DNA of 64,000 bases from NCBI GenBank assembly GCA_946409515.1, contig CAMJWS010000001.1, positions 1,557 through 65,556 of the forward strand. Direction: 5' to 3'. The translations under genes were made by a program, and so were the position numbers. This document shows, piece by piece, positions 1-15,800 of the stretch. The notes under the pieces were generated by a model. The model worked only from the letters and a program-made list of their open reading frames with translations, was not told the origin of the DNA and searched no databases. Origin of the DNA: an uncultured Bacillales bacterium (GTDB taxonomy: Bacteria; Bacillota_I; Bacilli_A; RFN20; CAG-826). Within the stretch, counting starts at the first letter, position 1, and every line of letters begins with the position of its first letter.

Positions 1-127
1 CATGTTCTTTGCAAGTAATACATATCTTTTTATCGCTGCCAGAATAAACGGCTCTTTCATATGAAAACTTATCTCCATAAAGATTCTTAGCTTCTTTGAT
101 AAATGTTTCAGTTGTTTTTCTTTTCAT
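1..127 (-). CDS. N-terminal 42-aa fragment of a homing-endonuclease-like protein; the rest of the gene lies left of the window.
   Basis: The reverse complement of 1-127 reads MKRKTTETFIKEAKNLYGDKFSYERAVYSGSDKKICITCKEHG, with ATG at 125-127 (cat on plus). This N-terminal pattern (FI.KAK..YGDK..Y....Y........I.C..HG) is typical of phage free-standing homing endonucleases. It continues the nuclease gene series on the same strand. Confidence 0.4.
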   Translation of the reverse strand, partial: MKRKTTETFIKEAKNLYGDKFSYERAVYSGSDKKICITCKEH

Positions 128-130
128 ATT

Positions 131-1372
131 CTAATCTACATATTTCCAATGGTAACCGCCAGCCACACTTCTTTTGCCTTTACAACATTTGGTTATACTT
201 GTTGCATCCTTAAGATTAGCAAATCTAGCTGCATCACCCATAGATTCAAAAACCTCGTTCGTTTCAACGCATAACACCATTTTATTTGCTTTGCTTTTTC
301 CTTTATACTTCAAGCCAAGCCTATGAGCTTCAGTATTAATTGCTCGGCTGGTTCTAGAAGGCATATATTTTTTTACATCAGATCCAATTAAAGGATACTT
401 TTCTTTCAATAATTGAATTTCTTTTTTCGAAAATTTATCGGCACGTTTTGTTGTTGGCTTTTTCTCATATGAACTTTTATCTTTTGCAAAGCAAAAATGC
501 AAACCTGCGGTACCATTTTCTTTTCCGTTACAGCATCTTAGAATCTTGCCTGTGTTTGCTCCTGTGCATTCATGAGCTTCATTTGCGTTTTTGTAGACAG
601 CATCGGTTTCAAAACAATAAATTTTTTCATTTCTTGAAAATGACATTTCTGCAGGTTCCCAATTAATAGAATAATCCCTTTCGTAGCACCAAAAAAATCC
701 ATTGGCTTTTCTTTGTTTTCTATTGCAACAAGAAACAATGCTGCCACCACTAAATCCTAAATTATTCACTACTTGAGTTATGCTTTCAAATTTACGAATA
801 ACATTGAAATCATCATCTATTTGTAAAACAGGAGAAACGAGTTTGTTGTCTTTTGGTTTCCAATTAGTTGAGTAATTTTTCTTGTAACACCAAAAGTATC
901 CTTTGCATGAATGCTTTTCTCCTTCACAACATCTTCTAATCTGAGATGCGTTCCCTTCACCTTTGCCAAATTGTCTCGATGCTTCAGCGGTACTTGGGAA
1001 TTCTTTTAAGACACGAAGAGTTGTTTTGTCAATCTGTAAAACAGGATACCCCAAATGTTCTGCCGAATCACCACCAAGAGTCATATTGTATCCGTTAGAA
1101 TTTGGAAACCCTATATATGAATTGTAATGTGAAATCCAAAACACTTCTCTTTTATTAGCCAATTCTTGTGTTGGAATATTATTCTCTATAATTGAACTTT
1201 CAAAACTATCCCATCCATATTTTTTAATAGCTTTTGCAAAAACGGACGAATGGTTATCAGATGTGTAGCCCAATCCTTTTTTCCATCTCAAAGATGGAAG
1301 CTGTTTGGTTTGACCAATATACACTTTCCCATTCTTTTTATTAGTATGTTTGTAGATTAACCATGTTGTCAT
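131..1372 (-). CDS. GIY-YIG family homing-type endonuclease with four C-terminal NUMOD1/IENR1 DNA-binding repeats.
   Basis: The N-terminus (IYKHTNKKNGKVYIGQT...REVFWI...NMTLGG) fits the GIY-YIG catalytic motifs (GIY..YIG, R, E, N). It is followed by four ~45-aa repeats ending in the CC.GK/R....GY.W.Y signature (IRRCCEGEKHSCKGYFWCY; IVSCCNRKQRKANGFFWCY; ILRCCNGKENGTAGLHFCF; ITKCCKGKRSVAGGYHWKY), which characterises intron-encoded-nuclease repeat / NUMOD1 modules as in I-TevI-like enzymes. Confidence 0.75.
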   Translation of the reverse strand: MTTWLIYKHTNKKNGKVYIGQTKQLPSLRWKKGLGYTSDNHSSVFAKAIKKYGWDSFESSIIENNIPTQELANKREVFWISHYNSYIGFPNSNGYNMTLGGDSAEHLGYPVLQIDKTTLRVLKEFPSTAEASRQFGKGEGNASQIRRCCEGEKHSCKGYFWCYKKNYSTNWKPKDNKLVSPVLQIDDDFNVIRKFESITQVVNNLGFSGGSIVSCCNRKQRKANGFFWCYERDYSINWEPAEMSFSRNEKIYCFETDAVYKNANEAHECTGANTGKILRCCNGKENGTAGLHFCFAKDKSSYEKKPTTKRADKFSKKEIQLLKEKYPLIGSDVKKYMPSRTSRAINTEAHRLGLKYKGKSKANKMVLCVETNEVFESMGDAARFANLKDATSITKCCKGKRSVAGGYHWKYVD

Positions 1373-3399
1373 TTTTTAATATTTGGATTTTTAACACTGC
1401 CCTTATAAAAATGTGATTTATATCTGTGCTCCACAATTGTTCCGTCTTCAAATTGCACATCTATATCATCTGCTTTTCTATATGCAATGCATGTCGCAAC
1501 CATTCCGCATTTTTGCATAATAGATACACCGATGCAACTTGCTCTTTTTTTAATAATATCGTATTGACTAATCCTAGGATGTCCTATAACGCCTTTCCTT
1601 AATGAATCAAGTTTCTTGTGTCTAACAATTGTCCCGTCCTCGAATTCAACATCAATATCATCGCTTCTGCGATAGGCAATTATCGTAGCTTTCAAACCAC
1701 AACTCATCATATAAGTTTCAGGTTCAAACGACCTGAACTCTTCTTTTACAATTTTGCTAGATTTTATCTTTGATAAAAGTGTTTCATTTAAAGTAACATT
1801 TTCGTTAATACCAAGTTCGTGAAGTAATATGTTTAAATACCTCTCTAATTCACTTAATAAATTATCATAATCTCCTGCGTTGGAAGTTGATTCTAAACAA
1901 TAGTTGATATGTTTCGGGCCATTATGAATAACACAACCTTTTTCTAGGAAAGTGTAGATTTTACTAATTTCTTTTGCTTTCGAAATTAGCTCAAATTTCA
2001 TAGTACTTTTCTGAGTTTCTTCTGAGTGCCATTTAACACCATCGTATTCAACGCCGACCTTAAGAGATGGAATCCAAATATCTATTTCAAGATTGCTTTT
2101 TGTCGCTGGATTCTTTAACCAATTAGGTCTGTAGTTGTGGTCAACTTTTTTGAAATATTTTTTAAGAAAATAATAGATTATTTGTTCAGGAAGAGAACCA
2201 CTCAAAATGTTAGGATTAGCAATTGAGCCATTAACAAAACAGGATTTTGTTTTATGTTCAACAATAGTTCCGTCCTCAAATTGAATATCAATATCTTCTG
2301 AATTCCTATATTTAATACAAGTTGCATTCATTCCATTATTCATCAGTTTTGTTTCGCCTTCGCATGAATATGGATCATAGTTTGGATTGCTTATTTCACC
2401 TCTTAAAAACGATGCTTTTGTTCTATGTTCTACTATGGTGCCATCCTCAAATTCAACATCAATATCATCGCTTCTTCTATACGAAACACAAACGGCTTTT
2501 TGTCCGTTGAGCATCTTTCTGCTTTCGCCAAGACAAGAGTATGGATCGTAATTGGGATTTTGTAGTGAACCATTTACAAAATAATCTTTTCGAGTATGTT
2601 CAACTACCGTTCCATCTTCAAATTGAACATCAATGTCATCAGTTTTCCTATATCCGATGCAGGTAGCCTTTTGTCCATTATTCATATCAACTGTTTGACC
2701 CAGACAAGATGACATATTGTGATTTTGAATCAAGCCTCTAATAAATTCATATCTATATCTATGTTTAACGATAGTTCCATCTTCAAATTGGACATCGATA
2801 TCTTTGGCTCCACGGTCAATGATGCATGTAGCTTTCATTCCACAATTTTGAAGAATTGTTCTTCCAATACAGCTAAAGCGATTGTAGTTAGGATTTTTAA
2901 TTCCTCCATTAAGAAAAGTGTTCTTTTGTTTATGGTAAACAATTGTTCCATCTTCAAATTGAACGTCTATATCTACGTTTGTACGGTAAGCAATACATTT
3001 TGCTTTTTGACCATTTTTTTGAGTCACTTCAATATTTAATACAGATGCTTTTGTGGATGAATTACATTTAGGGCTAGTAATATTACCTGACTTAAACTTA
3101 TCTATTGCTCTATGTTCAACGATTGTTCCATCTTCAAACTGGACATCTATATCATAGTAACCGCGATAAGCGATAATTGTTGCTACTTGGCCATTAAACA
3201 TTTTGTTGCTTTTGCCAATCCAAAAATTAGGATTTTTAACTTCTCCTTTTAAAAATTGGTATTTTGTTGTTTTTACAATAGTTCCATCTTCAAACTGGAC
3301 ATCAATGTCTTGTGGTTTTCTATAAGCAACACAAACGGCGTATTGCCCATTATTCATCAACCTTTTGTCTCCAACGTTAACAATCTTTTCGTTCAACAT
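1369..3399 (-). CDS. Vsr-like (PD-(D/E)XK, DUF559-type) endonuclease domain embedded in nine novel ~43-aa tandem repeats (seven N-terminal, two C-terminal).
   Basis: The central segment NYRPNWLKNPATKSNLEIDIWIPSLKVGVEYDGVKWHSEE matches the Vsr/DUF559 core (E.D.(Y/W)IP.L..(A/G)(I/V)EYDG..WH). Nine copies of NGQKATCIAYRxxDDIDVQFEDGTIVEHxxKxxFxxGxIxNPNY flank it; the repeat is not recognised as any known family. The start overlaps the GIY-YIG gene stop by 4 nt (ATGA), consistent with co-transcription. Confidence 0.6.
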   Translation of the reverse strand: MLNEKIVNVGDKRLMNNGQYAVCVAYRKPQDIDVQFEDGTIVKTTKYQFLKGEVKNPNFWIGKSNKMFNGQVATIIAYRGYYDIDVQFEDGTIVEHRAIDKFKSGNITSPKCNSSTKASVLNIEVTQKNGQKAKCIAYRTNVDIDVQFEDGTIVYHKQKNTFLNGGIKNPNYNRFSCIGRTILQNCGMKATCIIDRGAKDIDVQFEDGTIVKHRYRYEFIRGLIQNHNMSSCLGQTVDMNNGQKATCIGYRKTDDIDVQFEDGTVVEHTRKDYFVNGSLQNPNYDPYSCLGESRKMLNGQKAVCVSYRRSDDIDVEFEDGTIVEHRTKASFLRGEISNPNYDPYSCEGETKLMNNGMNATCIKYRNSEDIDIQFEDGTIVEHKTKSCFVNGSIANPNILSGSLPEQIIYYFLKKYFKKVDHNYRPNWLKNPATKSNLEIDIWIPSLKVGVEYDGVKWHSEETQKSTMKFELISKAKEISKIYTFLEKGCVIHNGPKHINYCLESTSNAGDYDNLLSELERYLNILLHELGINENVTLNETLLSKIKSSKIVKEEFRSFEPETYMMSCGLKATIIAYRRSDDIDVEFEDGTIVRHKKLDSLRKGVIGHPRISQYDIIKKRASCIGVSIMQKCGMVATCIAYRKADDIDVQFEDGTIVEHRYKSHFYKGSVKNPNIKK
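1378..3351 (-). repeat. In-frame ~126-129-bp tandem DNA repeats (nine copies) encoding the 43-aa protein repeat; the array is interrupted by the nuclease-domain coding segment (~2210-2430).
   Basis: A recurring nucleotide motif on the plus strand (...atcaatatcatcgcttct...gttccatcttcaaattgaacatcaatatc...) at ~126-bp spacing corresponds to DIDVQFEDGTIV codons. Confidence 0.6.
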
Positions 3400-3536
3400 A
3401 AAAATATTCTAACACGACATTTCTAAAGAAAAAATGGACAAAAAGCCCATTTTCGAGTCCCACCTGTTATGCCAAAATAGTGTCCATCCCCTCTAATTTC
3501 TTAAAAGTGATACACACTAAGTTGGGAAAGTCGAGT

Positions 3537-4250
3537 TTAGCCTTTTTTAAAAATGTCAGGAGTAACTTCGATGTAACGGTGTTCGTCTTTAACACCTTTT
3601 TCGCCCCAATGGAATAAGTACATGTCCATAAATAAAGCACTTTCACGACCCAAATATTGGATTTGGTCACATAAAGTACATATGGTTGCGTACTTATATT
3701 CTTTTGCCATTAAGACTTCATCATAAAAGAATGCATTGAAATCAGCTAATAATGAATTAATTACTGAATCCCATTGAACGAAGTCTAAATCAATTATTGA
3801 TGCTCTATGCTCAATTAATTCCAAAAGGTAAATGACATTGCAAGTGCGTTTATCGAAGTTCTTTATATTTAAATATATAAAATGATGTTTTCCGACAGTT
3901 TGAGTGCCTTTTCGGATTCGATTGGTATAAATCACTATCTTGCCATCGTGATAAGGCGTGATTTTGAATTTGTTATACATATCGTATCCAACTACAACAC
4001 CATGACCGTTATTGGTATACCAGTCAACTAGCTTGTCACCACTACCAGTTCTATCGTTAGGGTCTGCCACGATTAAATAGACACCGTGTGCTTTTCTAAC
4101 GAGAACGCCTTCTTCTTCTAATCTTTTGAGGATTTTGTAGAAAGTTTTAGGCTTACAGGCAGGAAAATGATCCACTAATTCCCTGTGAATATCGAAAACA
4201 CCGCCCTTATTTTGCAGGCAATACTCACGAATTGTTTTAGTATAATTCAT
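3537..4250 (-). CDS. AbiEi-like winged-HTH protein (AbiEi_4 N-terminal domain plus uncharacterised C-terminal domain).
   Basis: The N-terminus (KGGVFDIHRELVDHF...KTFYKILKRLEEEGVLVRKAHGVYLI) follows the AbiEi antitoxin N-domain pattern (G.F...EL........Y..L..L...G.L.R...GVY). No AbiEii nucleotidyltransferase partner is adjacent. Confidence 0.4.
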   Translation of the reverse strand: MNYTKTIREYCLQNKGGVFDIHRELVDHFPACKPKTFYKILKRLEEEGVLVRKAHGVYLIVADPNDRTGSGDKLVDWYTNNGHGVVVGYDMYNKFKITPYHDGKIVIYTNRIRKGTQTVGKHHFIYLNIKNFDKRTCNVIYLLELIEHRASIIDLDFVQWDSVINSLLADFNAFFYDEVLMAKEYKYATICTLCDQIQYLGRESALFMDMYLFHWGEKGVKDEHRYIEVTPDIFKKG

Positions 4251-4371
4251 TAAATGCTTACTCCTTTCTGATTGTCCAAGACGACTTTCACATAAAAATT
4301 ACCGCACTATTTTATTTTTGTCAGCGCTTTTTTTAAATTAATCCGGCATTGCCTATTTTTATAAATAAAAA

Positions 4372-4411
4372 CGACATCCTGTATATTCTACAAAATGTCG
4401 ACTTTTTGTGA
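4372..4411 (-). terminator. Rho-independent terminator downstream of tRNA-fMet.
   Basis: Inverted repeat cgacat...atgtcg. On the minus strand it is followed by TTTTTATTT. Confidence 0.45.
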
Positions 4412-4412
4412 T

Positions 4413-4488
4413 TGGTTGCGGAGGCAGGATTTGAACACTGCGACCTCCAGGTTATGGGCCTGACGAGCTACCACTGCTCTACTCCGCG
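4413..4488 (-). tRNA. tRNA-Met (anticodon CAT), initiator-like.
   Basis: The minus-strand read CGCGGAGTAGAGCAGTGGTAGCTCGTCAGGCCCATAACCTGGAGGTCGCAGTGTTCAAATCCTGCCTCCGCAACCA is near-identical in architecture to E. coli/B. subtilis tRNA-fMet. It has the C1·A72 mismatch, a TTCAAAT T-loop and an encoded CCA. The anticodon loop reads CCCATAA, with C rather than U at position 33. Confidence 0.8.
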
Positions 4489-4519
4489 ATCTCGCCCGGA
4501 GTTTAGTCCAGGCAATTGA

Positions 4520-4696
4520 TTACTTGCGATTTTTACGACGAGCGTTTTCGCTTTTCACTTTTCTCTTAAGAGATTTCTTTAAGAAAAATTCTCTCTTACG
4601 GGCTTCTTGGATAGTGCCAGCTTTATTAACTTGTCTTTTGAATCTACGAAGAGCATCATCTAATGTTTCGTTTTCACGAACTGAAGTCTTTGGCAT
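4520..4696 (-). CDS. rpsU: 30S ribosomal protein S21 (bS21).
   Basis: 58 aa: [58 protein letters not shown], with a GGAGG RBS 8 nt upstream. It falls below the 60-aa cutoff of the ORF track. Confidence 0.9.
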
Positions 4697-4771
4697 GTCT
4701 ATTCACCTCCTTGAAGCTTTTCGCAACGTGTCTATTATTACAAAGTAGTCTAACTATTGCAAGTATTATTA

Positions 4772-5410
4772 TTAAATAATTTTCGCACCACTGGATGTGC
4801 CGATGCGGTTAGCACCCGCTTCAACCATGGCAATAAGGTCTTCGTGTGTACGAACACCACCACTGGCTTTAACGCCCATTTCTGGACCAACAGTTTCTCT
4901 CATGAGTTTCACTGCTTCAACAGTGGCACCACCAGTTGAGAAGCCTGTACTTGTTTTAACAAAGTCAGCGCCAGCTTCTTTAGCGGCTTTACAAGCACGA
5001 ACGATTTCATCGTTACTTAATAAGCATGTTTCAATAATGACTTTTAAGATGATATTGTGTCCAACGGCTTGTTTGATTTCTCTGATTTCTTCTCTGACAT
5101 AATCATCATGGCCAGCTTTTAACATACCGACATTGATAACCATGTCAACCTCATCAGCGCCCTCCTTAACAGTGAGAACTGCTTCTTCCACTTTAGTTTT
5201 GGTTAAGTTCATACCAAGAGGGAAACCAATAACGGTGCAGACTTTAACATCACTATCTTCTAAGCACTTCGCGGCTAATGGGACATAAGCAGGATTAACA
5301 CAAACTGACATAAAGTCAAATTGTTTTGCTTCTTCACAGAGTTTAACAATTTGTTCTGGGGAAGCGTCTTGTTTTAATAAAGTATGATCAATAAGTTTAT
5401 TGTATTGCAT
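4772..5410 (-). CDS. deoC: Deoxyribose-phosphate aldolase.
   Basis: Full-length match to the DeoC pattern ([42 protein letters not shown]). Confidence 0.9.
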
Positions 5411-5502: not shown

Positions 5503-6873
5503 TTATGCTTTTTGTTTCTTAGCTTTTTCAGCATTAAGCACTCTTAGTTCATCAACCCAGTTGGTATCTTTAACTTCACCTTGAGTTAAGCCATCTTTTT
5601 CCATCGCTGCTTTGATGAGTTCTTTACATCTTCTAACTGATAAGCCAGATCTAACTTTGAAGAGTAAAGGCATTTCAGCATAGTTTGGTCTATGGCCAAC
5701 ATCTTCGACTGGTATGGTTGAATCTTTATAGTCTTCTGGAGATAAGGCTAAGTAGACTTTTAATGTTTTACCAACAAGATAAATCTTTACATATCTCTTA
5801 TCTTTTAATCTAAAGGTTTCACCACCTCTAGATAATCTAGCTTTAACACCATAAGAGAGGATTTCATTCTTTAATTCGTTATAGTTAACCTTGGTTTCAG
5901 TTTCCGCGGTAATAATACGCATAAAGAATGGTTGACGTTTACTTCTATTCCAGCCTTCTTCCTCTTCTTCTGGGATAGGTGCTGGAGCAGGTTTCTCTTC
6001 TTTTTGAAGAGGTTTTGGATTATCAAGTTGAGGCCAAACGGTTCTAGCAACTTTCCAGAAATCAATTGAACCATAAATGGCTTTCTTTTCAGGAACTGGC
6101 TTTGGTTCTGGTTTAGGTTCTTCTTTAACTTCTTCTACAACTGGCTCAGGTTCCTTAACTGGTTCTTCCACCACGACTGGAACTGGTTCTGGTTTAGGTT
6201 CTTCTTTTTGAGCCTCATTACCAACGATAATCACTTTGAATGGTTGGTTCTTAATGAGTTCATCTCTCACGATTCTTCTAATGTATTCATCGTCACCTTC
6301 TTCTTCGTAATATTCTTCACGAATAGCTTTAGAAGCATTGAACGCTAGGAAGGAACGAATAACACACCAGAAATAGAAGATAATGGATAAGAGGAAGTAT
6401 AACGCTGTTAAGGCCACCATAACTAATGCAAGGAGCTTTAACGAGGTCACTTCACCATTCATCATGTGCCAGTACATTCTCGCTCCACTTGCTAAAACGA
6501 CATATATTAAGAAACTAATAAATGATAGAGCAATAGCGTGGCCCATAATGCTGGTGTTCTTTTTATCGTTAATGATAATACCGGCAATTAAGAAGATAAC
6601 CCAGCAAATGAATAAGGCGTACAAGAACGCACTTAGTGCAAAGTAAACAATGCTAGATCCACTAGGATATCTAAATAAGACAAGATCTAGTAAGCCATGT
6701 AAGTGGTATTTCATTACCCCTACGAAGCTAGCTAAATCTGCATCACCGGTTTTCTTAGCAAACAATGCTAAGACGATGAAGCACGCTAGGAACGCCACTG
6801 CTACAAATATAGTAGCGGCAAGTAGTCTTTTAAGACCTTTACTTAATTTTGTTTTTGAGTTTTCCATAATCAA
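5503..6873 (-). CDS. Integral membrane protein with a Pro/Glu/Lys-rich linker and an uncharacterised cytoplasmic C-terminal domain; operonic with the giant surface-protein gene.
   Basis: About five predicted TM helices at the N-terminus, then KEEPKPEPVPVVVEEPVKEPEPVVEEVKEEPKPEPKPV low-complexity linker. It lies 12 nt downstream of the 3999-aa gene on the same strand. Confidence 0.5.
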   Translation of the reverse strand: MIMENSKTKLSKGLKRLLAATIFVAVAFLACFIVLALFAKKTGDADLASFVGVMKYHLHGLLDLVLFRYPSGSSIVYFALSAFLYALFICWVIFLIAGIIINDKKNTSIMGHAIALSFISFLIYVVLASGARMYWHMMNGEVTSLKLLALVMVALTALYFLLSIIFYFWCVIRSFLAFNASKAIREEYYEEEGDDEYIRRIVRDELIKNQPFKVIIVGNEAQKEEPKPEPVPVVVEEPVKEPEPVVEEVKEEPKPEPKPVPEKKAIYGSIDFWKVARTVWPQLDNPKPLQKEEKPAPAPIPEEEEEGWNRSKRQPFFMRIITAETETKVNYNELKNEILSYGVKARLSRGGETFRLKDKRYVKIYLVGKTLKVYLALSPEDYKDSTIPVEDVGHRPNYAEMPLLFKVRSGLSVRRCKELIKAAMEKDGLTQGEVKDTNWVDELRVLNAEKAKKQKA

Positions 6874-6885
6874 TTCTCCTTTCCA

Positions 6886-9800
6886 TTAGTTTTGATAAGG
6901 AATTGTGAATCTAGTTATATAAACCAGATAATCGGAAGCGGCTCCAAAACGAGCCTTAATGGCGCTGACTGATGCTGAATCTTCATCGCCTTCGCAATAA
7001 ACTGTTTTTGCTGCTGGAGTACCACCGATAGCAGATACACCAACAGTTACAATAGTATCAGGTAAGTAAATAGTTGAAAGAGAAGAACAATAGCCAAAAG
7101 CCCATGTGCCAATGGTAGTTACGCCCTTAGGAATTAAAATGGATTTTAAAGACTGGCAACGATAGAACGCATAATCACCAACTGTTGTCACGCCAGTCTT
7201 TGGAAGAGTAATGTTCACGATATTTGCGCAACCATCGAATGCATGAGCAGCAATATCACCACCACCAAGAATTGTGACATCAGTTAAATTTTCTGGGATA
7301 AAGTATGGTTGCGTACTGTATGTGGAAGCGCCAAAGATGGAACCAAAGTGACTACCAGCAATACCAACATTTGTGCCAATAAATGGAAGAACGACTTTTT
7401 CCACATTTCTGCAACCATCATATGCGCCAAAGCCAATAGAAGTGACACTAGTTGGAAGTGCAATTGAACGGAAGGATGTACAGTTTATGAAAGCTTGTTC
7501 ACCAATGAAAGCGACACCATTAGGAATAACGACGTCTTCTAATTGAGAACATCCATAGAAAGATCTACTTCCAATTGAGGTTACACTATTTGGAATCGTA
7601 ATGGAGCTTAAGGATGTACAATTTCCGAAAGCTAATTCGCCAATAGAAGTGATACCTTCAGAAAGTACAATCTCTTCGACATTTGAACAGTAATAGAATG
7701 TTCTATCAGCAATGTATTCACCACCACTAATGACAATGGTCTTAAGTGTTAGAGGAATGCTACTATTGAATAAATTGCTAATAGTAACACTACGTGTGTC
7801 CGTTTCGTTGGCATATTTATATGTTGAAGGTAGTTTAAGATATTCTAATGACGGACAACCAGCTAGTGATTTATCTAACCATTCGATGTTACCGGCAAAT
7901 GTCACTGATTTAACATTATTACAGCCTTCAAATGCCCATTCATATAGTTCATAGTTATCGCCTGTGATGATGATTGTCTCAAGACTTGTTGGAATCTTTG
8001 GAGTGTTATCCTTTGTATAATCAACATCAAAGATATAATTCATACGGCAATATGTTGTATTTGAAGCTGGGTTAGAATCATTGATTGAATAGTTTCTTCT
8101 GCCAACAAATGGAATTGATAGAGTTTCAAGACTTGTACAGCCATCTAACATGCCTTGGCCCATTTCAGTAACGGAATTTGGAACTTCAACGCTAACTAAT
8201 GAAGAACAGCCTAAGAACGCTGCACTACCAATAGAGGTAACAGTGTTAGGAATAGCAATTGCCTCTAAGGAAGAACAATTCTTAAATGCGGCAGTTGGAA
8301 TTGCAGTAAATGATACATTATTTGGAAGTAGAGCATACTTAAGTGAAGTACAACCTTCAAATGCACTATAGCCAATTGAGGTAACGCTATCTGGGATAAC
8401 GATTGATTCTAATGAAGAACAATTGAGGAATGCATTATAAGGAATTGCAGTAAGTGTAGATGGAAGTACAACGTTCTTTAAACCGCCGCAATCTTTGAAA
8501 GCATTATATCCAATGGTCTCAAGTGTTGATGATAGTTTAGCGTATTCTAATGAAGTACAACCTTCAAATGCACTATAGCCAATTGAGGTAACGCTATCTG
8601 GGATAACGATTGATTCTAATGAGACACAACCATAGAACGCATTGTTATCAATAGCGGTAATACCTTGTGGTAAGGCAACTGTTTCTAAGGATGCACAGTT
8701 CCAGAATGTTCGATAATTAATCGTCGACATTGAGCCTGTAAAGATGATTGTTTTAACACTTCCACATCCTTCAAAAGTATTTTTATAGATTTGATCATCA
8801 CCAACAACAGTGATGCTTTCAAGAACAGGAGAAACTCCAGTCCAGAACAAATCTTTGAAAACTTTGTCTGAAAGAGCTTTAGAAGGAACAGTCATATGTT
8901 TGAGATTTGTGCAACCATCAAATGTCCAAATGCTAATATTGGCGTTTGGACAGTCAATGACTACTGATTCAAGCATTGAACAGTTTCTAAAAGAATTTTG
9001 GACAATATTGGATTCAGAAGCGTTTGTAATGATAACGTTTCTTAATGAAGCAGGGATGAAATAATAATAATCATTTTGACCATAGGTGAATTGGTAAACA
9101 CCATCACCTTCATATGTTGCTCCGCTTTCATTATTATGTACATCAAAGCCAAAGATGAAGCCAAACATTCTTTCATTTGTATAGTTGCTACTATTGAAGC
9201 GACCAACGTGTGGAATTGATAATGTTTCTAAAGATGAACATCCTTTAAACGCTCCTTCTCTAATTTGAATAACACTGTTTGGAATATAAGCACTCTTCAA
9301 AGAAGTACAATTTAAGAAGGTATCTGTGGAGATAATCTCAACACCATTTGGAACAACAATAGATTCTAACGCTGTGCATCCACTGAATGTTTCGCTACCA
9401 AGATTAGTAAGAGTCGCTGGAAGAACGATGTTCTTAAGAGCAGTACAATCTTTAAAAGCTTGATTATTGATTTCGGTCACGCCAGATGGAAGAACAATAC
9501 TTTCCATTGAAATACAATTCATGAATGAACCAGCACCAATGGTTGTAATAGGTTCTGGAATTACTACGCCTTTTAAAGAAATACAGTTTGCAAACATACT
9601 TCCGTTAAGAGCGGTAAAGGAAGCATTATTTGGAAGCATGACATAAGTCAATGAACTACAGCCATTGAAAACACCCCACATGCTAGTAACGCTGTTTGGA
9701 ATAACGACACTCACTAATGAGGTACAATTCATGAATGCGCCGTTTCCGATTGTAACCACACTATTTGGTATAGAAATATTTGTTAAAGCGCTGCAATTTG

Positions 9801-12800
9801 CAAAAGCACTACCATTGATACTGGTAACTGTATTTGGAATTGATACAGTTGTTAACGAAGTACAAGAATCAAATGCACATAAACCAATACTTTGAACATT
9901 ATTTGGGAAAGCAACCGATTGTAAAGAGAGACATCCATAGAAGCAATATCTTGGCAAATCAGTAAATTTGTTCATAAATGAAACCGAAACTACTTGATCG
10001 CAATAAGCAAAGTTACCTCCATAAGAATTAAGAGTAATGTTTTCACCAATGACAATATTCTTTACTCTTACATAGCCAAATGCGGAATGATAAATCGTGC
10101 CATTACCGATTAAATAGAATGTATCCAAGTAAGTTGTTGTTGTTTGACTGCCATGGTTGCCTAGAACTATATTCATTGAATTAAAGCTGTATAAGGTATC
10201 AGGCATACCTGGTTCATAAGTTCCACCAAAATATGGAGCGGATAAATATTTTAATGAGTCGCAGTTTCTAAGTGCATCTTCGCCAATAGAAGTGACGCTA
10301 GCAGGGATAACTAGAGATACTATACTAGAACAGCCTTCAAAACCACTTTCGCCAATAGAAGTGACTGATGTTGGAATAGAAACACTAACAAGGCCAGAAC
10401 AGGCTTCGAAAGCGGAATCGCCAATAGAAGTGACACCATGTGGAATGTTCAAAGCGCTTAAAGAAGCACATCCTTCGAAAGCACTATCGCCAATTGTCTT
10501 TAAACTTGTTGGCATACTGATGTTTCTTAACGCTGGGCAATTCGAAAAAGCGGAATCTTCTATTGCAGTGATGCTATCAGGTAAAACAATAGTTCTTAAC
10601 GATGTGAAACCTTCGAAAGTACCTTGAGAAATCTTTGTTAAATTACCTTCAATGATAATGTTTTCAACATGCTTTGCACTATAGCCATGACCTGGTGCTA
10701 CAATCTCAGTAACATTCTTACCAACAATGATGTTTTTAGCATTGTAATTGCACTTCAAAGCACCACTACCTGTAATGTATAAATATTCTAAATGATATAG
10801 ACGTTCCCAAGGTGTTGGTGAGGTTCCAGATTCATAGAGATAAGTAAATGCACTACAATCAATAGGAATAGATAATGACTTGAGCGCCATACAATAACTA
10901 TTAAATTCATAACCAATAGATGTAACACTAGTTGGAATGACTAAAGTTTCAAGCGAATCACAGCTATAGAAAGCACGTTCACCAACTGTAAGAAGGCCAT
11001 TTGGTAAAAGCACCTCTTTTATATTATCAGCATCTTCAAAAGCACTATTGCCTATTTCTTTTGTCCCACCAATAATTTTGACAGATTTAATATTTTGGCA
11101 TCCAGCGAATGCTTTTTCACCGATTTTTTGATCACCAGTAATAACGATATTAGCTAATGTTGATGGTAGTAATCCATTTTGCACATCAGCGCTATTGGCG
11201 TCAAAGAAGTATCCAATGTAACCGTTATTGCCACTACCATCACCTAAGTATGGAACAACTAAAGTTTCAAGAGGTATTGCTTCTTTAGAATAATCGTATA
11301 AATAAACATCATAATCGGTAAAGTTGGTTTCATATGGATTGTTAAATTTTACCCAAAGATTTTTTCCGGCATACCAATCACCAGTATCGCCAATAAGTTC
11401 GCCATAGCCTGCTTCTTCAACAGTTTCTTCACTTAAGTAGAAGCTGTAATTATATAGTTCATCGTACCACGCATCCCATTCTTCCCAATAAGCATAAATG
11501 ACATACCATACTTGTTCAGGATCGTAATTATACTCAGTAGATGAATCATTTTCGTAAGGATTTATAGTAAGAATAAAGTCGTATTGACGTGGGTCGCCTT
11601 GAAGATCATAAGGGCTTGGATAATCATAGCCGCTCCACACGTGGATAAGTAATCTTACACTATCTTTAGGAACTATTTGCCATTTAACACCACCATCTAA
11701 AGAAGCTAAGATGCCTTGGCCAATTGATGTGACACTATTAGGAATAATAAAGGTTTTTAATCCGATGCAGCCTCTAAAGGCATAATCACCAATTGATAAG
11801 AGGCCTTCGTTAAGCGAAACACTGGTGAGGTTTGAACACTTTTCAAAAGCGCTTTCACCAATTGATTTAACATTTTCAGGTACCGCAAATGTTTTTAAAG
11901 CTAAGCAGCTATCAAACGCATGATTACCAATAGAAGCAATACTATCGTTAAGGGCAATGATTTCAATGCTTGAACAATATGCAAAAGCATAATCACCTAA
12001 GGTTTCACCACCGACGATAACAGCTTTCAAAGTCTCTGGCACTGTATAAATGTTGTCTTCAGGATCATTTGAACCAAATAGAGTTCCAATACTTCCTGCT
12101 AAGGAAGGCAAGACTAAAGATTGAATATTAGAAGTACTATCAAGCTTATAGAGTTCGGTTTCATAAGTATCTTCGTTGTAGTAGTAATAATAATCGCCTA
12201 TAGAATAATCATTAATAGATGGGAAATCTCCATAGCCCATATAGTTATCAATATCACTGTAGTCACTATATTCTTTAATCTTAGTCCAGGTGTCATCGCT
12301 AGTCTTACGATAAAGAGTATAAGTAGTATCAGAATCGAGCCACCAGTCACCAACATCACCATCATATTCAGATGGTTCGGAGGATGATTCAGTAATGCTA
12401 TCCGCTAAAAGAACCCACTGAATTTTTCCAGTAAGGATGCCAAAGCCAATATTAGTGACTGATTCTGGAATAGCAAGCGAAGTAAAGGATACGCATTTTT
12501 CAAAAGCATAATCACCAATTGTGGTAACACTATTTGGAATATTAATGCCTTTCAAGCTTTCACAACCACTGAACGCTCTCGCGCCGATAGCTGTTAATGT
12601 ATCTGGAAGGATGACTGTTTCAATGTGTGAGCAGTTAGCGAATGCACCACTCTTTAATTCAGTCACATTAGAAAGAACAACTGTCTTTAATGATGCAGGA
12701 GCTAAATTATTCCATGAACCATGGCTATGTTTGCTACCAGCAGCGATAAAGCCATAACCAAATGAATTAAATGCATCGGCGATATTGCCTTGTGGTAAGC

Positions 12801-15800
12801 CCCATCTATCGCTACTATTCTTAATCCAGAATGTACCAGTAGTTACGTTGATATAATAGTCTCTTTGAGCGGTTTCATATTGGCTTCTATTAGATGTGCC
12901 ATAATCACAAGAAGCAACACTGCCGTCTTCGTTGGTTAAAATGAGTTGACTAATCCATTCGCCATTAATCTTTCTATAGACTGTAGAAATATTAGCATCA
13001 AGATATAAGTCATTATCGTTACCGATACTATTGGATGGTTTTTGACCACTAGATAATTTGCCAGCGTAAACCCTACTACCAATAACTGTAGCGCTACCAC
13101 CGACGAACGGAAGAGTAATGCTATTAAGATTAGATCTAAATTCGACTAATAAATCACCATCATCTGAATTGATAAATAATTTGCCAGATTCAATAGAAGT
13201 TGGGGAAATGACATCATAGAATAATTCGAAACCGACAATTGTGTCTCTTAATTCCCACTTATTGCCTTCTTCATAACGAACCCAGATTTCACCATAGTGT
13301 TCAGCATCAGTGAATACGATAATATCACCAATTTCACCATCAACTGGTAAATCGTGAGTGCTTGTTACTTGAATAATAGCGTATTCGGTTCTTTCTGGAG
13401 AATATTTATCCCATAAGTTACCTTTTCTTGTTAAACCAGTAGAGAAAGCACCTCTACCAATATCTTTAACAGAATCTGGAATGATAATTGATTCTAGAGA
13501 ATCACAACCAGTGAAAGCAAATTCACTGATGTTTTCTAAACCTTCGTTTAAAACGATATATTTAAGTGAAGTACAACCAAAGAACGCTCTTGTGCCTAAA
13601 TCTTTTAAGTTAGAAGGCATCGCAATAGCTTGTAATGATGTACAGCCTTCAAATGTTTGAACTTCAATTTTTTCTAAGTTTTCTGAAAGAGTGAGATATT
13701 TAAGTGAAATACAGCCTTCAAAAGCCATTCTACCAACAGAAGTAACACTATTTGGCATTACAAATGATTCTAAACCTGTGCAGTGATAGAAAGCTTGGAT
13801 ACCAATTGATTTTAAGTTAGCAGGTAAATTGATAGACTTTAATGATGTACAACCTCTAAATGCTAAATCACCAATCTCTGTAATTGTTTCCGCTAAGGCA
13901 ACAATTTTCAATGATTTGAGATCAGCAAACATTTTATTATTAACTTTAGTAATACCATGTCCTAAATAAACATTTTCCAAAGCATCACAATCTAGGAATA
14001 AGTTATCACCAAATTGTTTATCCACGCCGTCTTGGAAGACGATTGATTTAAGATGGCTATTTTCGCGGAATGCTCTGTCACCAATAAATGTAACAGAAGA
14101 TGGAATTACGAATGTTGAGCAACCTGTGTTCGCTAAAGCACCCGCTTCAATTCTTGTTAATCCTTGAGGAAGGTTGAGTTCAGTTAATTGTGTTGTTTGG
14201 TAGAAGCAAGCTCTTCCTAATACTTTTAGTGTGCTTGGAAGTTTAACTATAGTTAATGTGGTACAGAAATGGAATGCTTCTTGGCCGATTTTTGTAACCC
14301 CTTCAGGAATGACTACACTGATAATTTGGTTGCTAGCAAAAGCGAATTCAGGAATTGTGTCCCTATTAGCACCATTACCACCAGTTAAGATGATAGACTT
14401 AACATTACTATGGCCTTCAAAGAGATAATCTAATGAACCATCAGTTCCAGAAAGAGAATCTCTACTCTTGCCTATGAATGGTAATGTCAATTCAATAACA
14501 TCAGAATCTTTAAATACGCCTTTGCCTAAGTATTCCACACTATTAGGAACAACAAAGGATGTCATTTCGGTATCACCGAAAGCATAATCACTAATTTCTC
14601 TAACGTTATTTGGTAAGACGATATTTTCAGCATCACAACCATAGAAAGCATAGGAAGGAATACAGTCTTTATTATCACCATTAGCGCCAGTCAAAATAAT
14701 AGTGTCTAAATGACTTGGAATTCTGCTACTTTGGTTTTCTTTATTATTAGCGCCAAAAATATAGCCTAAGTAGTAATTGGATTCAGGAGCAGGATTGGCT
14801 AAATTCAAAATACTGCCCGCTCCCAACCAAGAATCACCGTAATAAACATAGATCTCACCAGTTTCATAGTTAAAGAAACGGCCACTACTTGGTAATTCTG
14901 TGCCAATTACAACGGCACCACTAGCAAGAATGTTAAGCGTTTCATCATTCTTATCTTCAGTCAAATCGAGCCATTGACCATTAGTAAACTGCCAATAATG
15001 CTTTGTAGCAAGATCAAAATATGTTGTGGTTGTTGGATTGACTGTATTTGGTTCACCGTTACCATAAGAATAAGTTAATGGAGCAATGTAACCAGAATCT
15101 GGACCAATATATGGAAGTGTGATTGATTTCAAATCATCACATTCTGCAAATGCACCAAAGCCAATTGATGATGGATTACCACTGATAATGATTGTTTCAA
15201 TACCATCGCATCCATTCATTGCATTAGCATCAATTGCATAATCGCCTGTAATTGTTACTGTCTTAAGAGATGATGGAAGAGCGGAATCGTTGTCGTCATA
15301 GCTATCACCGCCGAAGACAAATGATAAATATGTAGCATCAGTTACATAATTTGAAAGAACAGTAGCCATTTGTGGATTATCAACAAGATTCATATAGAAA
15401 TTCCATGTATCATTTTGGTATCCATAGAGATTGCCTGTATCGATATCCATCACAACATCACCGTTATCGGCTGAGCCTGTTGGAGCACCATTAACAAGCA
15501 TGCTTGGTGGAAGATTCATTTCTGTTTTATTCCATACACCATTCGCTTTAGCCCAGATATAACCTGATTCTGTATCTAAATATACATTATTTAAAGGATT
15601 TGTTGTGGTTGGTTCACCTGCGCCATAGCAGTAAGCCCAGCTAACTGAAGCCTCTGCGGAACCACCGATAAATGGAGCGGAATATGATTCTAAGGAATCA
15701 CAATCTTCAAAGGCGCCTTTACCAATTGATTTAATAGTGCTTGGCAAAATAATACCTTTTAAAGAAGAACAGTTAGCAAAAGCACCAGCGCCAATTGCTT

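Follow-up and report, generated by a model that had tools for sequence, protein, structure and literature searches.

A tRNA-linked, defense-type islet carrying nucleases of the homing endonuclease type

Positions 1 to 4407 of the window (the whole 64,000-nucleotide stretch of DNA that was analyzed) probably belong to an accessory islet of about 5.9 kb, of which they make up the three quarters nearest the tRNA. We classify the region as a tRNA-linked, defense-type islet with nucleases of the homing endonuclease gene (HEG) type, both of which are known kinds. On the minus strand, the window reads deoC, rpsU, an initiator-type tRNA-Met, and then four genes, which encode an AbiEi-family wHTH protein, a 676-aa protein, a GIY-YIG/NUMOD nuclease, and a truncated zinc-ribbon-repeat nuclease. 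The islet has three parts: a left arm and a 121-nt right arm, both conserved, and between them an exchangeable cargo slot. Here, the slot holds three co-oriented homing-endonuclease-type DNases, each joining a nuclease core to an array of small DNA-binding modules: a Vsr-like core with nine beta-barrels, a GIY-YIG domain with four NUMOD HTHs, and a PD-(D/E)xK-like domain with six zinc ribbons. Locus L002, which is 97 to 99% identical, served as a proxy for the DNA to the left of the window, and from it we infer that the islet is complete at this site, with its right end falling outside the window. Comparisons among loci revealed the anatomy of the islet, its insertion point, its recent horizontal spread, the exchange of its cargo, the independent mobility of its nuclease ORFs, and purifying selection. 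A preliminary description had proposed a mobile island of homing-endonuclease-type genes at the tRNA, of either a selfish or a defensive nature. All of the features that it named were present, apart from small corrections, and the synteny comparison supports an accessory, transferred element.

The tRNA-Met (4413 to 4488, minus strand; CAU anticodon, C1:A72 mismatch, encoded CCA) is the host anchor of the islet and lies outside the islet proper. The C1:A72 mismatch is a mark of initiator tRNAs. ARAGORN did not report a tRNA-Met at 4413 to 4488, so Rfam was needed, and model RF00005 matched 4416 to 4488 on the minus strand with 50.7 bits (gathering score, 29). The tRNA bodies vary among islet-bearing hosts. 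Junction comparison identified five nucleotides, ATCAC (4408 to 4412, minus strand), that separate the islet from the CCA; other copies have ATCGC or the host-type GATGC in this place. At empty sites, the CCA is followed by GATGT or GATGC and then by the terminator. Relatives supplied two comparisons with precise boundaries. The empty sites L153, L154, L155, L159, and L161 read CCA-GATGT and then the terminator, and L019, an occupied site, shares their flanks and has an insertion of 5.6 kb in front of that terminator. The empty site L001 has a flank 93% identical to that of the window, and divergence begins after CCA-GATGCA. The insertion point that emerges from the occupied/empty pair lies between CCA plus 5 nt and the original terminator of the tRNA. 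The pattern of 5-nt exchange rests on one occupied/empty pair plus the junction comparisons.

A direct repeat of the tRNA 3' end, which the preliminary description had proposed to look for, did not appear in clear form at the islet boundary. By eye, the right-arm end TCTGCCCCCA and the tRNA end TCCGCAACCA are alike at 7 of 10 positions. L002 contains a 24-nt relic of the tRNA-fMet 3' end about 150 bp beyond the islet (21 of 24 matches; 0 of 200 shuffles reached the score), and no such relic was found in L013, L019, or L021. We rejected the relic as an att repeat of the islet, as it occurs only in L002 and outside the conserved arms.

The left arm (3451 to 4407, minus strand) comprises a terminator hairpin for the tRNA (4400 to 4372, minus strand), a promoter region, the AbiEi-family gene, and an 86-nt trailer ending in ...CATAACAGGTGGGACTCGAA. 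The tRNA-fMet alleles that precede it number at least seven, and their upstream flanks are unrelated; the arm itself is about 95 to 98% identical throughout. In sister islets with other cargo, homology to the window always ends at about 3451. The AbiEi-family gene (3537 to 4250, minus strand; dN/dS, 0.03 to 0.17) encodes an orphan wHTH protein of 237 aa. It matched PADLOC model PDLC02251 over nearly its full length (E 1.2e-25, residues 1 to 199) and the Pfam and NCBIfam AbiEi models weakly, below cutoff; a sequence search against solved structures gave no match. No AbiEii partner (DUF1814 nucleotidyltransferase) was found among the islet genes of the window, L002, L013, L019, and L020. The AbiEi protein would serve as the transcriptional regulator of the islet. 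The motif AAATGTCG occurs in the promoter region of the AbiEi gene and again ahead of every cargo. Its enrichment in the window is not clear (7 matches against 2.8 expected; 2 of 100 shuffles reached 7), and as an AbiEi operator it is no more than an idea, with the GTCGACATTTTG/ATGTCG sites as candidates for AbiEi binding.

The AbiEi-headed islet family consists of this conserved left arm (terminator plus AbiEi gene), a swappable slot, and the 121-nt right arm. The slot is occupied elsewhere by Type III R-M (L018/L019) or by Type II R-M plus a PbeA-like helicase (L013). The nucleases, which the preliminary description took as the defining content of the island, are thus occupants of a defense-cargo slot, and it is the AbiEi gene that forms the conserved "head" of the family. 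The right arm, just outside the window, was seen in L002. It is 92 to 97% identical after four unrelated cargos, and its motif is confined to islet loci. At the present site, the right arm is predicted to read TAGYCYTCRAATCCCACCTGTGCTAT...GATCTGCCCCC, after which should come a host-type 5-mer, GATGC to judge from L001, and then ATACAATTAGACTGATACACTAGTGTCAGTCTTTTTTT. We also considered the right arm as a structured RNA and rejected this, with no Rfam match and no covariation (covariation term +2.84, a penalty).

Identity between the window and L002 jumps at the CCA end of the tRNA. The host genes deoC, rpsU, and the tRNA are 75.9%, 81.2%, and 84.7% identical, versus 99.4% for the tRNA-AbiEi spacer, 96.5% for the AbiEi gene, 97.3% for the 676-aa gene, and 99.0% for the GIY-YIG gene. 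Because identity is 96.5 to 99.4% in the islet versus 76 to 85% in the flanks, and because empty sites and solo nuclease ORFs exist, the islet is accessory and horizontally transferred. A vertically inherited operon is ruled out by the gene content and the identity discontinuity. The nuclease pair occurs without the rest of the islet in L005, between tRNA-Thr and adhE, and the 676-aa ORF occurs by itself beside McrBC in L006; in both places, homology is confined to the ORFs. The L006 orthologue directly adjoins McrBC, two C5 methylases, and an SLFN/nSTAND protein. Amino acid identity between L020 and the window is a mosaic (AbiEi, 68%; 676-aa protein, 84%; GIY-YIG protein, 92%; third gene, about 31%), with the third gene of L020 exchanged for a different one, and dS differs from gene to gene among the islet genes.

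The complete copies, L002 at about 5.9 kb and L019 at about 5.6 kb, encode no tyrosine or serine recombinase or integrase, and neither does L013. No recombinase was seen in any islet copy, an observation that runs against the reading that we prefer below. Phage structural, replication, and lysis genes were likewise not found in the complete copies, and a search for a parent element found no match to the arms in plasmid, phage, and viral-contig collections. Near-identical copies of about 5.6 to 5.9 kb with the same two arms are present in several hosts, which argues for recent movement of the small unit itself.

The cargo of the window begins with a leader (3400 to 3450, minus strand), recognized from alignments, that contains a terminator-like hairpin (AAATGGGCTTTTTGTCCATTTTTT) and a "TTTTTTCTTTAGAAAT(GTCG)" stretch. 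This stretch travels with the 676-aa gene, and in L005, an unrelated context, "TTTTTTCTTTAGAAAT" likewise precedes the orthologue. The 676-aa HEG-type nuclease (1369 to 3399, minus strand) has seven N-terminal repeats of about 57 aa each (2215 to 3375, minus strand; consensus G..ATCIAYR...DIDVQFEDGTIV.H..K..F..G.I.NPN), a central Vsr-like PD-(D/E)xK nuclease core (aa 399 to 552; 1744 to 2205, minus strand), and two C-terminal repeats of the same beta-barrel unit (1372 to 1725, minus strand). The repeat fold is a small SH3/KOW/Tudor-like beta-barrel, in which the variable positions (R-xxx-D loop, H-xx-K-xx-F) are candidates for reading target bases. The repeats had been called novel; they have no Pfam family, but they are present in PHROG 7955 and in phage "HNH endonuclease" genes. 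Viral contigs pair the repeat with AP2 (in a gene that carries the annotation HNH endonuclease), DUF723, Vsr-like, and NUMOD-like modules. A fold search placed the core in the Vsr-like nuclease fold, and residues E40, D42, E53, D55, and H60 of the core are invariant. The conserved core motif, E-x-D...E-Y-D-G...H...K, is a possible counterpart of the composite EDxHD motif. The core profile matched no Vsr or I-Bth0305I chain of the PDB at E values up to 10. More than 848 relatives make up the 676-aa family, all unnamed or labeled just "hypothetical protein," and in a wider family the same core is flanked by 8 to 10 DUF4379 zinc fingers. No PADLOC model matches the 676-aa protein. The gene has a dN/dS of 0.04 to 0.09.

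The GIY-YIG nuclease (131 to 1372, minus strand; 413 aa) has four NUMOD1/I-HmuI-type HTH repeats. It passed the thresholds of TIGR01453, the group I intron endonuclease subfamily (74.3 bits; cutoff, 56.05), and PF01541 (29 bits; cutoff, 22.6), and it matched PF22083 (I-HmuI_NUMOD-like) in two stretches (E 4.4e-13) and NUMOD1 with 24.2 bits. The motif "LIY...VYIG" and four NUMOD-type "CC...G..W.Y" repeats are readable in its translation. The protein matches "homing endonuclease" models of PHROG and PADLOC; the PADLOC matches are to "HEase" accessory models only and to no defined defense system. The gene has a dN/dS of 0.12 to 0.15 and is frameshifted in L002 to L004. Four contexts place it at the 3' end of the 676-aa gene, and no GIY-YIG gene follows the L006 orthologue. 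For both the 676-aa and the GIY-YIG gene, the close relatives lie on chromosomes and not in viruses, which also runs against our preferred reading. The overlapping stops and starts described earlier hold only for the start of the GIY-YIG gene and the stop of the 676-aa gene (ATGA, 1369 to 1372). However, the GIY-YIG and third ORFs are 3 nt apart, and 137 nt separate the AbiEi and 676-aa genes. The three nuclease genes are tightly packed and possibly cotranscribed, which is unusual for independent HEGs and is a further observation against that reading.

Only the first 42 codons of the third nuclease (1 to 127, minus strand) lie in the window, whose edge cuts the gene; they are 98.4% identical at the nucleotide level to L002 positions 6447 to 6573. 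In the source contig, the gene is predicted to end about 1.36 kb past position 1, at the TAG that opens the right arm. The complete L002 copy encodes 493 aa, with six zinc-ribbon repeats and a PD-(D/E)xK-like C terminus. Pfam models DUF4379, DUF723, and CapR zinc-ribbon repeats match it, and hhalign related the third nuclease to the Vsr-like core (E 7e-4). Sequence searches of the third nuclease and of the nuclease core against solved structures gave no match, and PADLOC gave a marginal match for the third protein (E 0.0078). A total of 1,101 phage records contain relatives of this nuclease, often more than one. In a Treponema MAG, one relative lies near a tRNA-Met together with a putative integrase-like fragment and a putative serine recombinase, both recognized by eye. 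HMM and fold searches have thus backed the nuclease and wHTH assignments of the preliminary description, and a dN/dS of 0.04 to 0.15 indicates that the nuclease proteins are functional.

We consider it fairly probable that the region is a small mobile islet, placed 5 nt past the CCA of the initiator tRNA, in which selfish HEG-type nucleases occupy a defense-type slot, with an AbiEi regulator and a recombinase acting in trans. The HEG nature of the nucleases is supported by the TIGR01453, GIY-YIG, and NUMOD matches, the Vsr-like fold, the phage relatives, the module combinations on viral contigs, and the DUF4379-flanked wider family. An HEG-free allele in which a homing site could be identified was not found, which counts against this reading. 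In this scenario, the nucleases would be sequence-specific DNA endonucleases with long sites, and they would act as selfish HEGs accreted in a slot usual for restriction-type defense. They would cut DNA that lacks them, either rival or empty alleles or invading DNA, and repair or exclusion would then keep and spread them. The islet would integrate by site-specific recombination over the approximately 5-nt junction, with the recombinase supplied in trans, and an excised or circular form would join the right-arm end to AAAAAGTCGACATTTTG.

Alternatively, the three nucleases may be a dedicated antiphage module, derived from HEG ancestors and controlled by AbiEi, that restricts without a methylase by means of very long sites. 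Sister islets fill the same slot with Type II or Type III R-M and a PbeA-like helicase, and the neighborhood of the L006 orthologue (McrBC, two C5 methylases, and the SLFN/nSTAND protein) points the same way, as do strong purifying selection in all contexts, a mostly chromosomal lineage, and the 676-aa/GIY-YIG pair, which stays joined with overlapping stop and start in four contexts. However, each ORF has a separate history, with the third gene swapped in L020 and the 676-aa gene found elsewhere without its partners. The GIY-YIG frameshift in L002 to L004 also speaks against a dedicated module, as does PADLOC, in which only the "HEase" and AbiEi matches are solid, with none for the 676-aa protein and the marginal one (E 0.0078) for the third. 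We hold this alternative to be a possible but minority explanation. Because true defense systems occupy the slot and an orthologue lies in an McrBC island, a domesticated defense role for the nucleases fits as well as a selfish one.

The AbiEi protein raises the further idea of an AbiE-like toxin-antitoxin or abortive-infection pair, in which the downstream nuclease or nucleases replace the AbiEii nucleotidyltransferase toxin. COG5340/DUF1814 pairs are known as such (PMC3632139), the AbiEi model match is nearly full length and includes the C-terminal domain, and AbiEi is always the first gene, immediately ahead of the cargo. Such a pair is nevertheless very unlikely: the same AbiEi gene (95 to 98% nucleotide identity) heads wholly different cargos, complete R-M systems included; the nucleases of L005 and L006 have no AbiEi; and a terminator-like hairpin stands between AbiEi and the cargo. 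We find it scarcely credible that the region is a decayed prophage or integrative element once in tRNA-fMet, now immobile, with the HEGs as leftover phage genes. The nuclease architectures are of phage type, and the tRNA-fMet relic past the L002 islet and the gene neighborhood in the Treponema MAG would suit such a remnant. However, the near-identical copies with the same arms in several hosts indicate recent movement; phage genes for structure or replication and integrase genes are missing from every copy; the phage, plasmid, and viral-contig collections contain no match to the arms; and the relic is outside the arms and in L002 only. As a refinement of the preliminary description, the region is not a prophage remnant: complete copies, of about 5.6 to 5.9 kb, lack phage genes and an integrase.

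A bolder extension of our preferred reading, that of a mobile islet with selfish nucleases, seems unlikely. It would make the AbiEi-headed islets a class of mobile elements not described before, very small, site-specific, and without an integrase, that aim at the few bases between tRNA-fMet and its terminator and ferry interchangeable restriction-type cargo among gut and rumen Clostridia, by means of a trans recombinase or an unrecognized activity linked to the arms and AbiEi. The cargo would include a new modular DNA reader, with up to 14 beta-barrel repeats around a Vsr-like core, that recognizes very long sites and allows safe, methylase-free restriction or exclusion.

An islet of about 6 kb that is always at the same few bases past the initiator tRNA and encodes no recombinase is mobile without visible means, and identifying its mover would widen the known routes by which defense genes spread. 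HEG-type nucleases and classical R-M are alternative cargos on one mobile platform, and the long-discussed link between selfish nucleases and host defense becomes directly testable at one locus. The 676-aa family pairs a Vsr-like core with arrays of beta-barrel repeats that are absent from Pfam. If each of these repeats reads DNA, they would form a new modular scaffold for DNA recognition.

Several known systems resemble parts of the islet. The free-standing GIY-YIG/NUMOD homing endonucleases of phages (I-TevI and the T4 Seg proteins) have, like the islet's GIY-YIG protein, a GIY-YIG domain followed by NUMOD-type HTH modules, and the islet protein matches "homing endonuclease" PHROGs and is encoded by a compact ORF that moves with ORF-tight boundaries. 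Unlike them, it is chromosomal without a close viral relative, always directly follows the 676-aa gene with overlapping start and stop, and has four NUMOD-type repeats plus an extra HTH-like segment. The EDxHD/Vsr-like homing endonucleases (I-Bth0305I; PMC3239194), a family in which free-standing members have been described, have a core fused to separate DNA-binding modules, as does the 676-aa protein. However, the sequence of the 676-aa protein shows no detectable likeness to solved Vsr or I-Bth0305I chains, and its DNA-binding part is an array of nine beta-barrel repeats, placed both before and after the core, in contrast to the two N-terminal NUMOD2 motifs of the I-Bth0305I type. The third gene of the islet is itself a member of the DUF4379/DUF723 zinc-ribbon-repeat nucleases, which are widely annotated as "homing endonuclease" in phages. 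The wider 676-aa-core family likewise has the order of module array, core, and module array, with SH3/KOW/Tudor-like beta-barrels replacing zinc fingers in the 676-aa protein.

The head gene of the islet resembles the AbiE (AbiEi/AbiEii) type IV toxin-antitoxin system in its nearly full-length match to the AbiEi model. Unlike AbiE, it has no AbiEii (DUF1814) in any copy and stands ahead of interchangeable cargos. As a whole, the islet is comparable with tRNA-linked defense islands, core defense hotspots, and CIMEs (PMC5704250), the last of which are elements that lost their integration genes yet kept attL and attR (PMC5704250). It is likewise accessory DNA at a tRNA gene, with exchangeable cargo that is mostly R-M or other defense and with no integrase in cis. 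Unlike them, it is inserted 5 nt past the tRNA and not within the 3' end of the tRNA, lacks clear flanking direct repeats, and is very small, at about 6 kb, with a short conserved arm on either side. The copies are about 95 to 99% identical across hosts whose flanks are about 76 to 85% identical, which indicates that the islet is currently mobile.

All relevant genes at the left end of the window (1-5410) lie on the minus strand. The order is deoC (5410..4772; Pfam DeoC), rpsU (4696..4520; Pfam Ribosomal_S21), a tRNA gene (4488..4416, with CCA at 4415..4413), a 237-aa AbiEi-like ORF (4250..3537), a 676-aa ORF (3399..1369), a 413-aa GIY-YIG ORF (1372..131), and a third ORF that starts at 127 and continues past the window edge. 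The nuclease cluster had been described as having overlapping stops and starts. This holds for the 676-aa and 413-aa ORFs, which are joined by an ATGA overlap, but the 413-aa ORF ends 3 nt before the following ATG; the gap between the 237-aa and 676-aa ORFs is 137 nt. The tRNA scored 50.7 bits in Rfam and has a CAU anticodon and a C1:A72 mismatch, a typical initiator-tRNA feature. ARAGORN did not report this tRNA (4416-4488), although it called the homologous tRNA in two other loci, L013 and L009. ARAGORN-only scans can overlook anchors of this initiator type. Upstream of deoC, a minus-strand ORF of 3,999 aa (6886-18885) with collagen-like GPQGP repeats and many LRR_5 (BspA-type) repeats is probably a giant surface protein. 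Its counterpart in the related contig L001 was called at 4,526 aa, with Flg_new and LRR_5 matches, and is 88% identical across the sole long alignable stretch within the gene.

Three other loci, L002 to L004, have the window's gene order after deoC-rpsU-tRNA. Nucleotide identity between the window and L002, a complete copy of the islet, is 75.9% in deoC, 81.2% in rpsU, and 84.7% in the tRNA, versus 99.4% in the tRNA-AbiEi spacer, 96.5% in AbiEi, 97.3% in the 676-aa gene, 99.0% in the GIY-YIG gene, and 98.4% in the start of the third gene. The jump is located at the tRNA CCA. L001 is 93% identical to the window across the giant surface-protein gene, deoC, rpsU, and the tRNA, and parts from it directly after CCA-GATGCA; its assembly stops 60 bp on. 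A left arm of about 1 kb (window 4407..3451), consisting of a terminator, the AbiEi gene, and an 86-nt trailer, follows tRNA-fMet in L013 to L016 and L021 at about 95 to 98% identity, and in these five loci the tRNA alleles differ and the upstream flanks are unrelated. In L018 to L020, a 68%-identical AbiEi variant is in the same position. Five further loci (L153, L154, L155, L159, and L161) have the flanking genes of L019 with nothing between them. These results show that the islet is accessory, recently transferred, and spreads horizontally, at a precise site beside tRNA-fMet. The mobile island proposed in the preliminary description is thus borne out by the contrast between islet (96.5 to 99.4%) and flank (75.9 to 84.7%) and by the existence of empty sites. 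Many independent metagenome assemblies end at or just past this tRNA-fMet (L001, L014 to L016, L154, L156, and L159); strain-level presence/absence of the islet, or differences in its cargo, would fit this pattern.

The empty site reads tRNA...CCA-GATGT-AAACTACAGTTCTGATACATTCAGGACTGTTTTTT. In occupied L019, the left end reads CCA-GATGC and then, across the junction, AAAAAGTCGAC...; after the 5.6-kb insert, the right end reads ...CACCCAATCGTT and then AACTACAGTTCTGATACATTCAGGACTGTTTTTT. Therefore, the islet lies 5 nt past CCA and ahead of the tRNA's original terminator, and supplies a replacement terminator (window 4400..4372). Two kinds of 5-mer follow CCA: a host-type one (GATGC or GATGT) and ATCRC. 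L019 has the host-type 5-mer on the left and an ATCG-like 5-mer at the right end; in L002, L013, and L021, the left 5-mer is ATCRC and the bases past the right arm vary by host. Judged from these few junction sequences, the pattern looks like reciprocal exchange over a short overlap. Tyrosine recombinases produce exchanges of this kind. About 150 bp past the right arm of L002, right before a second terminator hairpin, are 24 nt (8200-8223; AGTGTTTAAGTCCTTCCTCCGCAA) left over from the 3' end of a tRNA-fMet. Of these, 21 agree with the window-type tRNA (a score reached by 0 of 200 shuffles), and the fit to L002's own tRNA is poor; the relic may derive from a former att site or from a second tRNA copy that has decayed. 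The L002 host backbone resumes after the islet with a fluoride riboswitch (8284-8358; Rfam 38.4 bits) upstream of a gene that reads by eye as cation/proton antiporter-like.

The right arm comprises the 121 nt past the last L002 cargo gene (7926-8046). It is found again, at 92 to 97% identity, in L013, L018/L019, and L021 to L024, where it comes after unrelated cargos. Three unrelated last cargo genes each end in a TAG stop codon that is the exact start of this arm. The cargo is the nuclease trio in the window and L002; the 676-aa and GIY-YIG pair (84% and 92% aa identity) with a different third gene in L020; a Type III R-M system in L018 and L019 (MTase_III E 1e-76, REase_III E 2e-21); a Type II R-M system (MTase E 9e-171, REase E 5e-97) with a PbeA-like helicase and two unknown proteins in L013; a C5 methylase with unknown proteins in L015 to L017; and a deleted remnant of the L013 type in L021 to L024. 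The arms are therefore conserved and the cargo is exchangeable. None of the islet copies encodes a recombinase gene. Plasmid, phage, and viral-contig collections searched with the arms gave no matches, and the rest of the 64-kb window holds no more copies of the beta-barrel repeat, nuclease core, or arms.

The left-arm end and right-arm start form imperfect inverted repeats (ACAGGTGGGAcTCG / CGAATCCCACCTGT), in agreement with a repeat finder. They are located at window 3451-3470, L002 7926-7950, and L021 8759-8788 and 9043-9072. Each resembles a tRNA T-loop/3'-end fragment, and arms joined without cargo would make a long hairpin. Inside the right arm are two GTAYCACTTTAGT direct repeats, a motif confined to islet loci; as GTAYCACTTTAGT..CTGC(A)CCCC, they lie at L002 7979-8034, L013 19003-19058, and L021 9089-9144, and L021 has an additional partial copy 1.7 kb downstream (10869-10881). 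In the left arm, GTATCACTTT is likewise present after the stop codon of AbiEi. These elements may be protein-binding sites; covariation gave no support for RNA structure in the right-arm repeats. Another motif, AAATGTCG (window 3415-3422 and 4393-4400), belongs to a GTCGACATTTTG...ATGTCG stretch of the AbiEi promoter region and lies just upstream of every different cargo, in the leaders of L013, L014, L015, L019, and L020. It may be an operator for an AbiEi-type regulator; the window has 7 matches versus 2.8 expected, and enrichment is not clear. In the cargo-depleted L021 islet, a 40-nt AbiEi-internal segment (8098-8137) is repeated in inverted orientation, at 95% identity, directly before the right arm (8982-9021); this looks like a rearrangement scar.

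The 413-aa protein matches TIGR01453 (group I intron endonuclease) at 74.3 bits against a curated threshold of 56, passes the curated thresholds of PF01541 and PF22083, and hits PHROGs and PADLOC families of homing endonucleases. Its translation contains four NUMOD-type repeats, each closing with CC...G..W.Y. The AbiEi-like protein has weak AbiEi resemblance in Pfam and NCBIfam, and the PADLOC AbiEi model covers its residues 1 to 199 (E 1.2e-25). The 676-aa protein carries a central domain with seven beta-barrel repeats on its N-terminal side and two on its C-terminal side, exactly nine in all, each of about 57 aa. The preliminary description, which had read from the sequence a GIY-YIG protein with four NUMOD repeats, an AbiEi-like wHTH protein, and nine repeats in the Vsr-like nuclease, was accurate on these points. 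An alignment of the central domain from 21 relatives revealed invariant E40, D42, W44, P46, E53-Y-D-G56, H60, and K70. A PDB sequence search with this domain found no match; its predicted structure has a pLDDT of 92.9. The third ORF is complete in the 98%-identical L002 copy, at 493 aa. That protein has six DUF723/DUF4379/CapR zinc-ribbon repeats and a C terminus that aligns weakly with the Vsr-like core over the catalytic motif (hhalign E 7e-4, probability 26%).

Relatives of the third nuclease occur in 1,101 phage records, frequently several per genome and frequently labeled homing endonuclease. The beta-barrel repeat is present on about 48 viral contigs, and in cultured phages, Bacillus phage genes with an HNH endonuclease annotation contain one copy of it; the gene in Bacillus phage Evoli adds an AP2 match below cutoff. 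A 222-kb viral contig encodes a 928-aa protein with 13 such repeats surrounding the same core as the 676-aa protein. Other viral proteins fuse the repeat to DUF723 zinc ribbons or, as read by eye from the translation, to a Vsr-like core and a NUMOD-like tail. The core profile of the 676-aa protein matched 28, 402, and 4,307 representative clusters at E values of 1e-30, 1e-10, and 1e-3, and in members sampled from the wider set, this core has 8 to 10 DUF4379 zinc fingers, CapR, or NUMOD-like modules on both flanks. Therefore, the 676-aa protein is a beta-barrel-for-zinc-finger variant of a common, uncharacterized layout. These comparisons show that the architectures of all three nucleases are of the HEG type. 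The close relatives of the 676-aa and GIY-YIG genes are chromosomal, not viral. In L009, a Treponema MAG locus (7717-13979), a tRNA-Met is followed after about 2.2 kb by a relative of the third nuclease (60% identity), which adjoins an integrase-like fragment, with a serine recombinase further on (both by eye). This neighborhood hints that nucleases of this type often ride in tRNA-linked islands.

The nuclease genes also occur apart from the islet. L005 has only the 676-aa and GIY-YIG pair (85% nucleotide identity to window 3357..123), about 400 bp downstream of tRNA-Thr and before adhE. L006 has only the 676-aa ORF (79% identity to window 3360..1373), which adjoins McrBC, two C5 methylases, and an SLFN/nSTAND protein. 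Between L020 and the window, amino acid identity is 68% for AbiEi, 84% for the 676-aa protein, 92% for the GIY-YIG protein, and about 31% for the third gene, which in L020 encodes a different DUF4379-repeat protein whose nuclease-domain hints are weak and below threshold. In matched comparisons of the two genes, dS is about 0.3 for the GIY-YIG gene versus 1.2 to 2.1 for the 676-aa gene. The separate contexts, the mosaic identities, and the unequal dS indicate that the ORFs have had separate histories, like free-standing HEGs. The dN/dS ratios are 0.04 to 0.09 (676-aa gene), 0.12 to 0.15 (GIY-YIG), and 0.03 to 0.17 (AbiEi); by this measure, all three genes are under strong purifying selection. 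The GIY-YIG gene of L002 to L004 has a 1-bp frameshift. Together, these results show independent mobility and functional constraint of the nucleases.

We suggest that the nucleases are long-site DNA endonucleases that would persist by cutting DNA without them, that AbiEi may regulate the islet, and that integration is probably site-specific and catalyzed in trans. In the main alternative, the trio would be a restriction module that lacks a methylase and has been domesticated, a view favored by the otherwise defense-type slot and by the McrBC neighborhood of one orthologue. Against it, the histories of the trio genes are mosaic, the third gene has been replaced in L020, and the GIY-YIG gene has been pseudogenized in L002 to L004. 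That AbiEi and the nucleases form a toxin-antitoxin system is unlikely, because one and the same AbiEi gene precedes unrelated cargos and the nucleases are also found without it. Gene content likewise makes a prophage remnant unlikely.

By sequence and domains, the 413-aa protein belongs with the GIY-YIG/NUMOD homing endonucleases, as a putative homing enzyme. The 676-aa core shares a modeled Vsr-like fold with the EDxHD/Vsr-like homing endonucleases (PMC3239194), of which it may be a member. The islet has AbiEi, but it is not an AbiE toxin-antitoxin system (PMC3632139), because AbiEii is absent. It shares an empty site and accessory status with tRNA-targeting integrative islands and CIMEs (PMC5704250), but has no integrase and no evident flanking tRNA repeats. 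Overall, the islet is a variation on these known kinds and not a category of its own.
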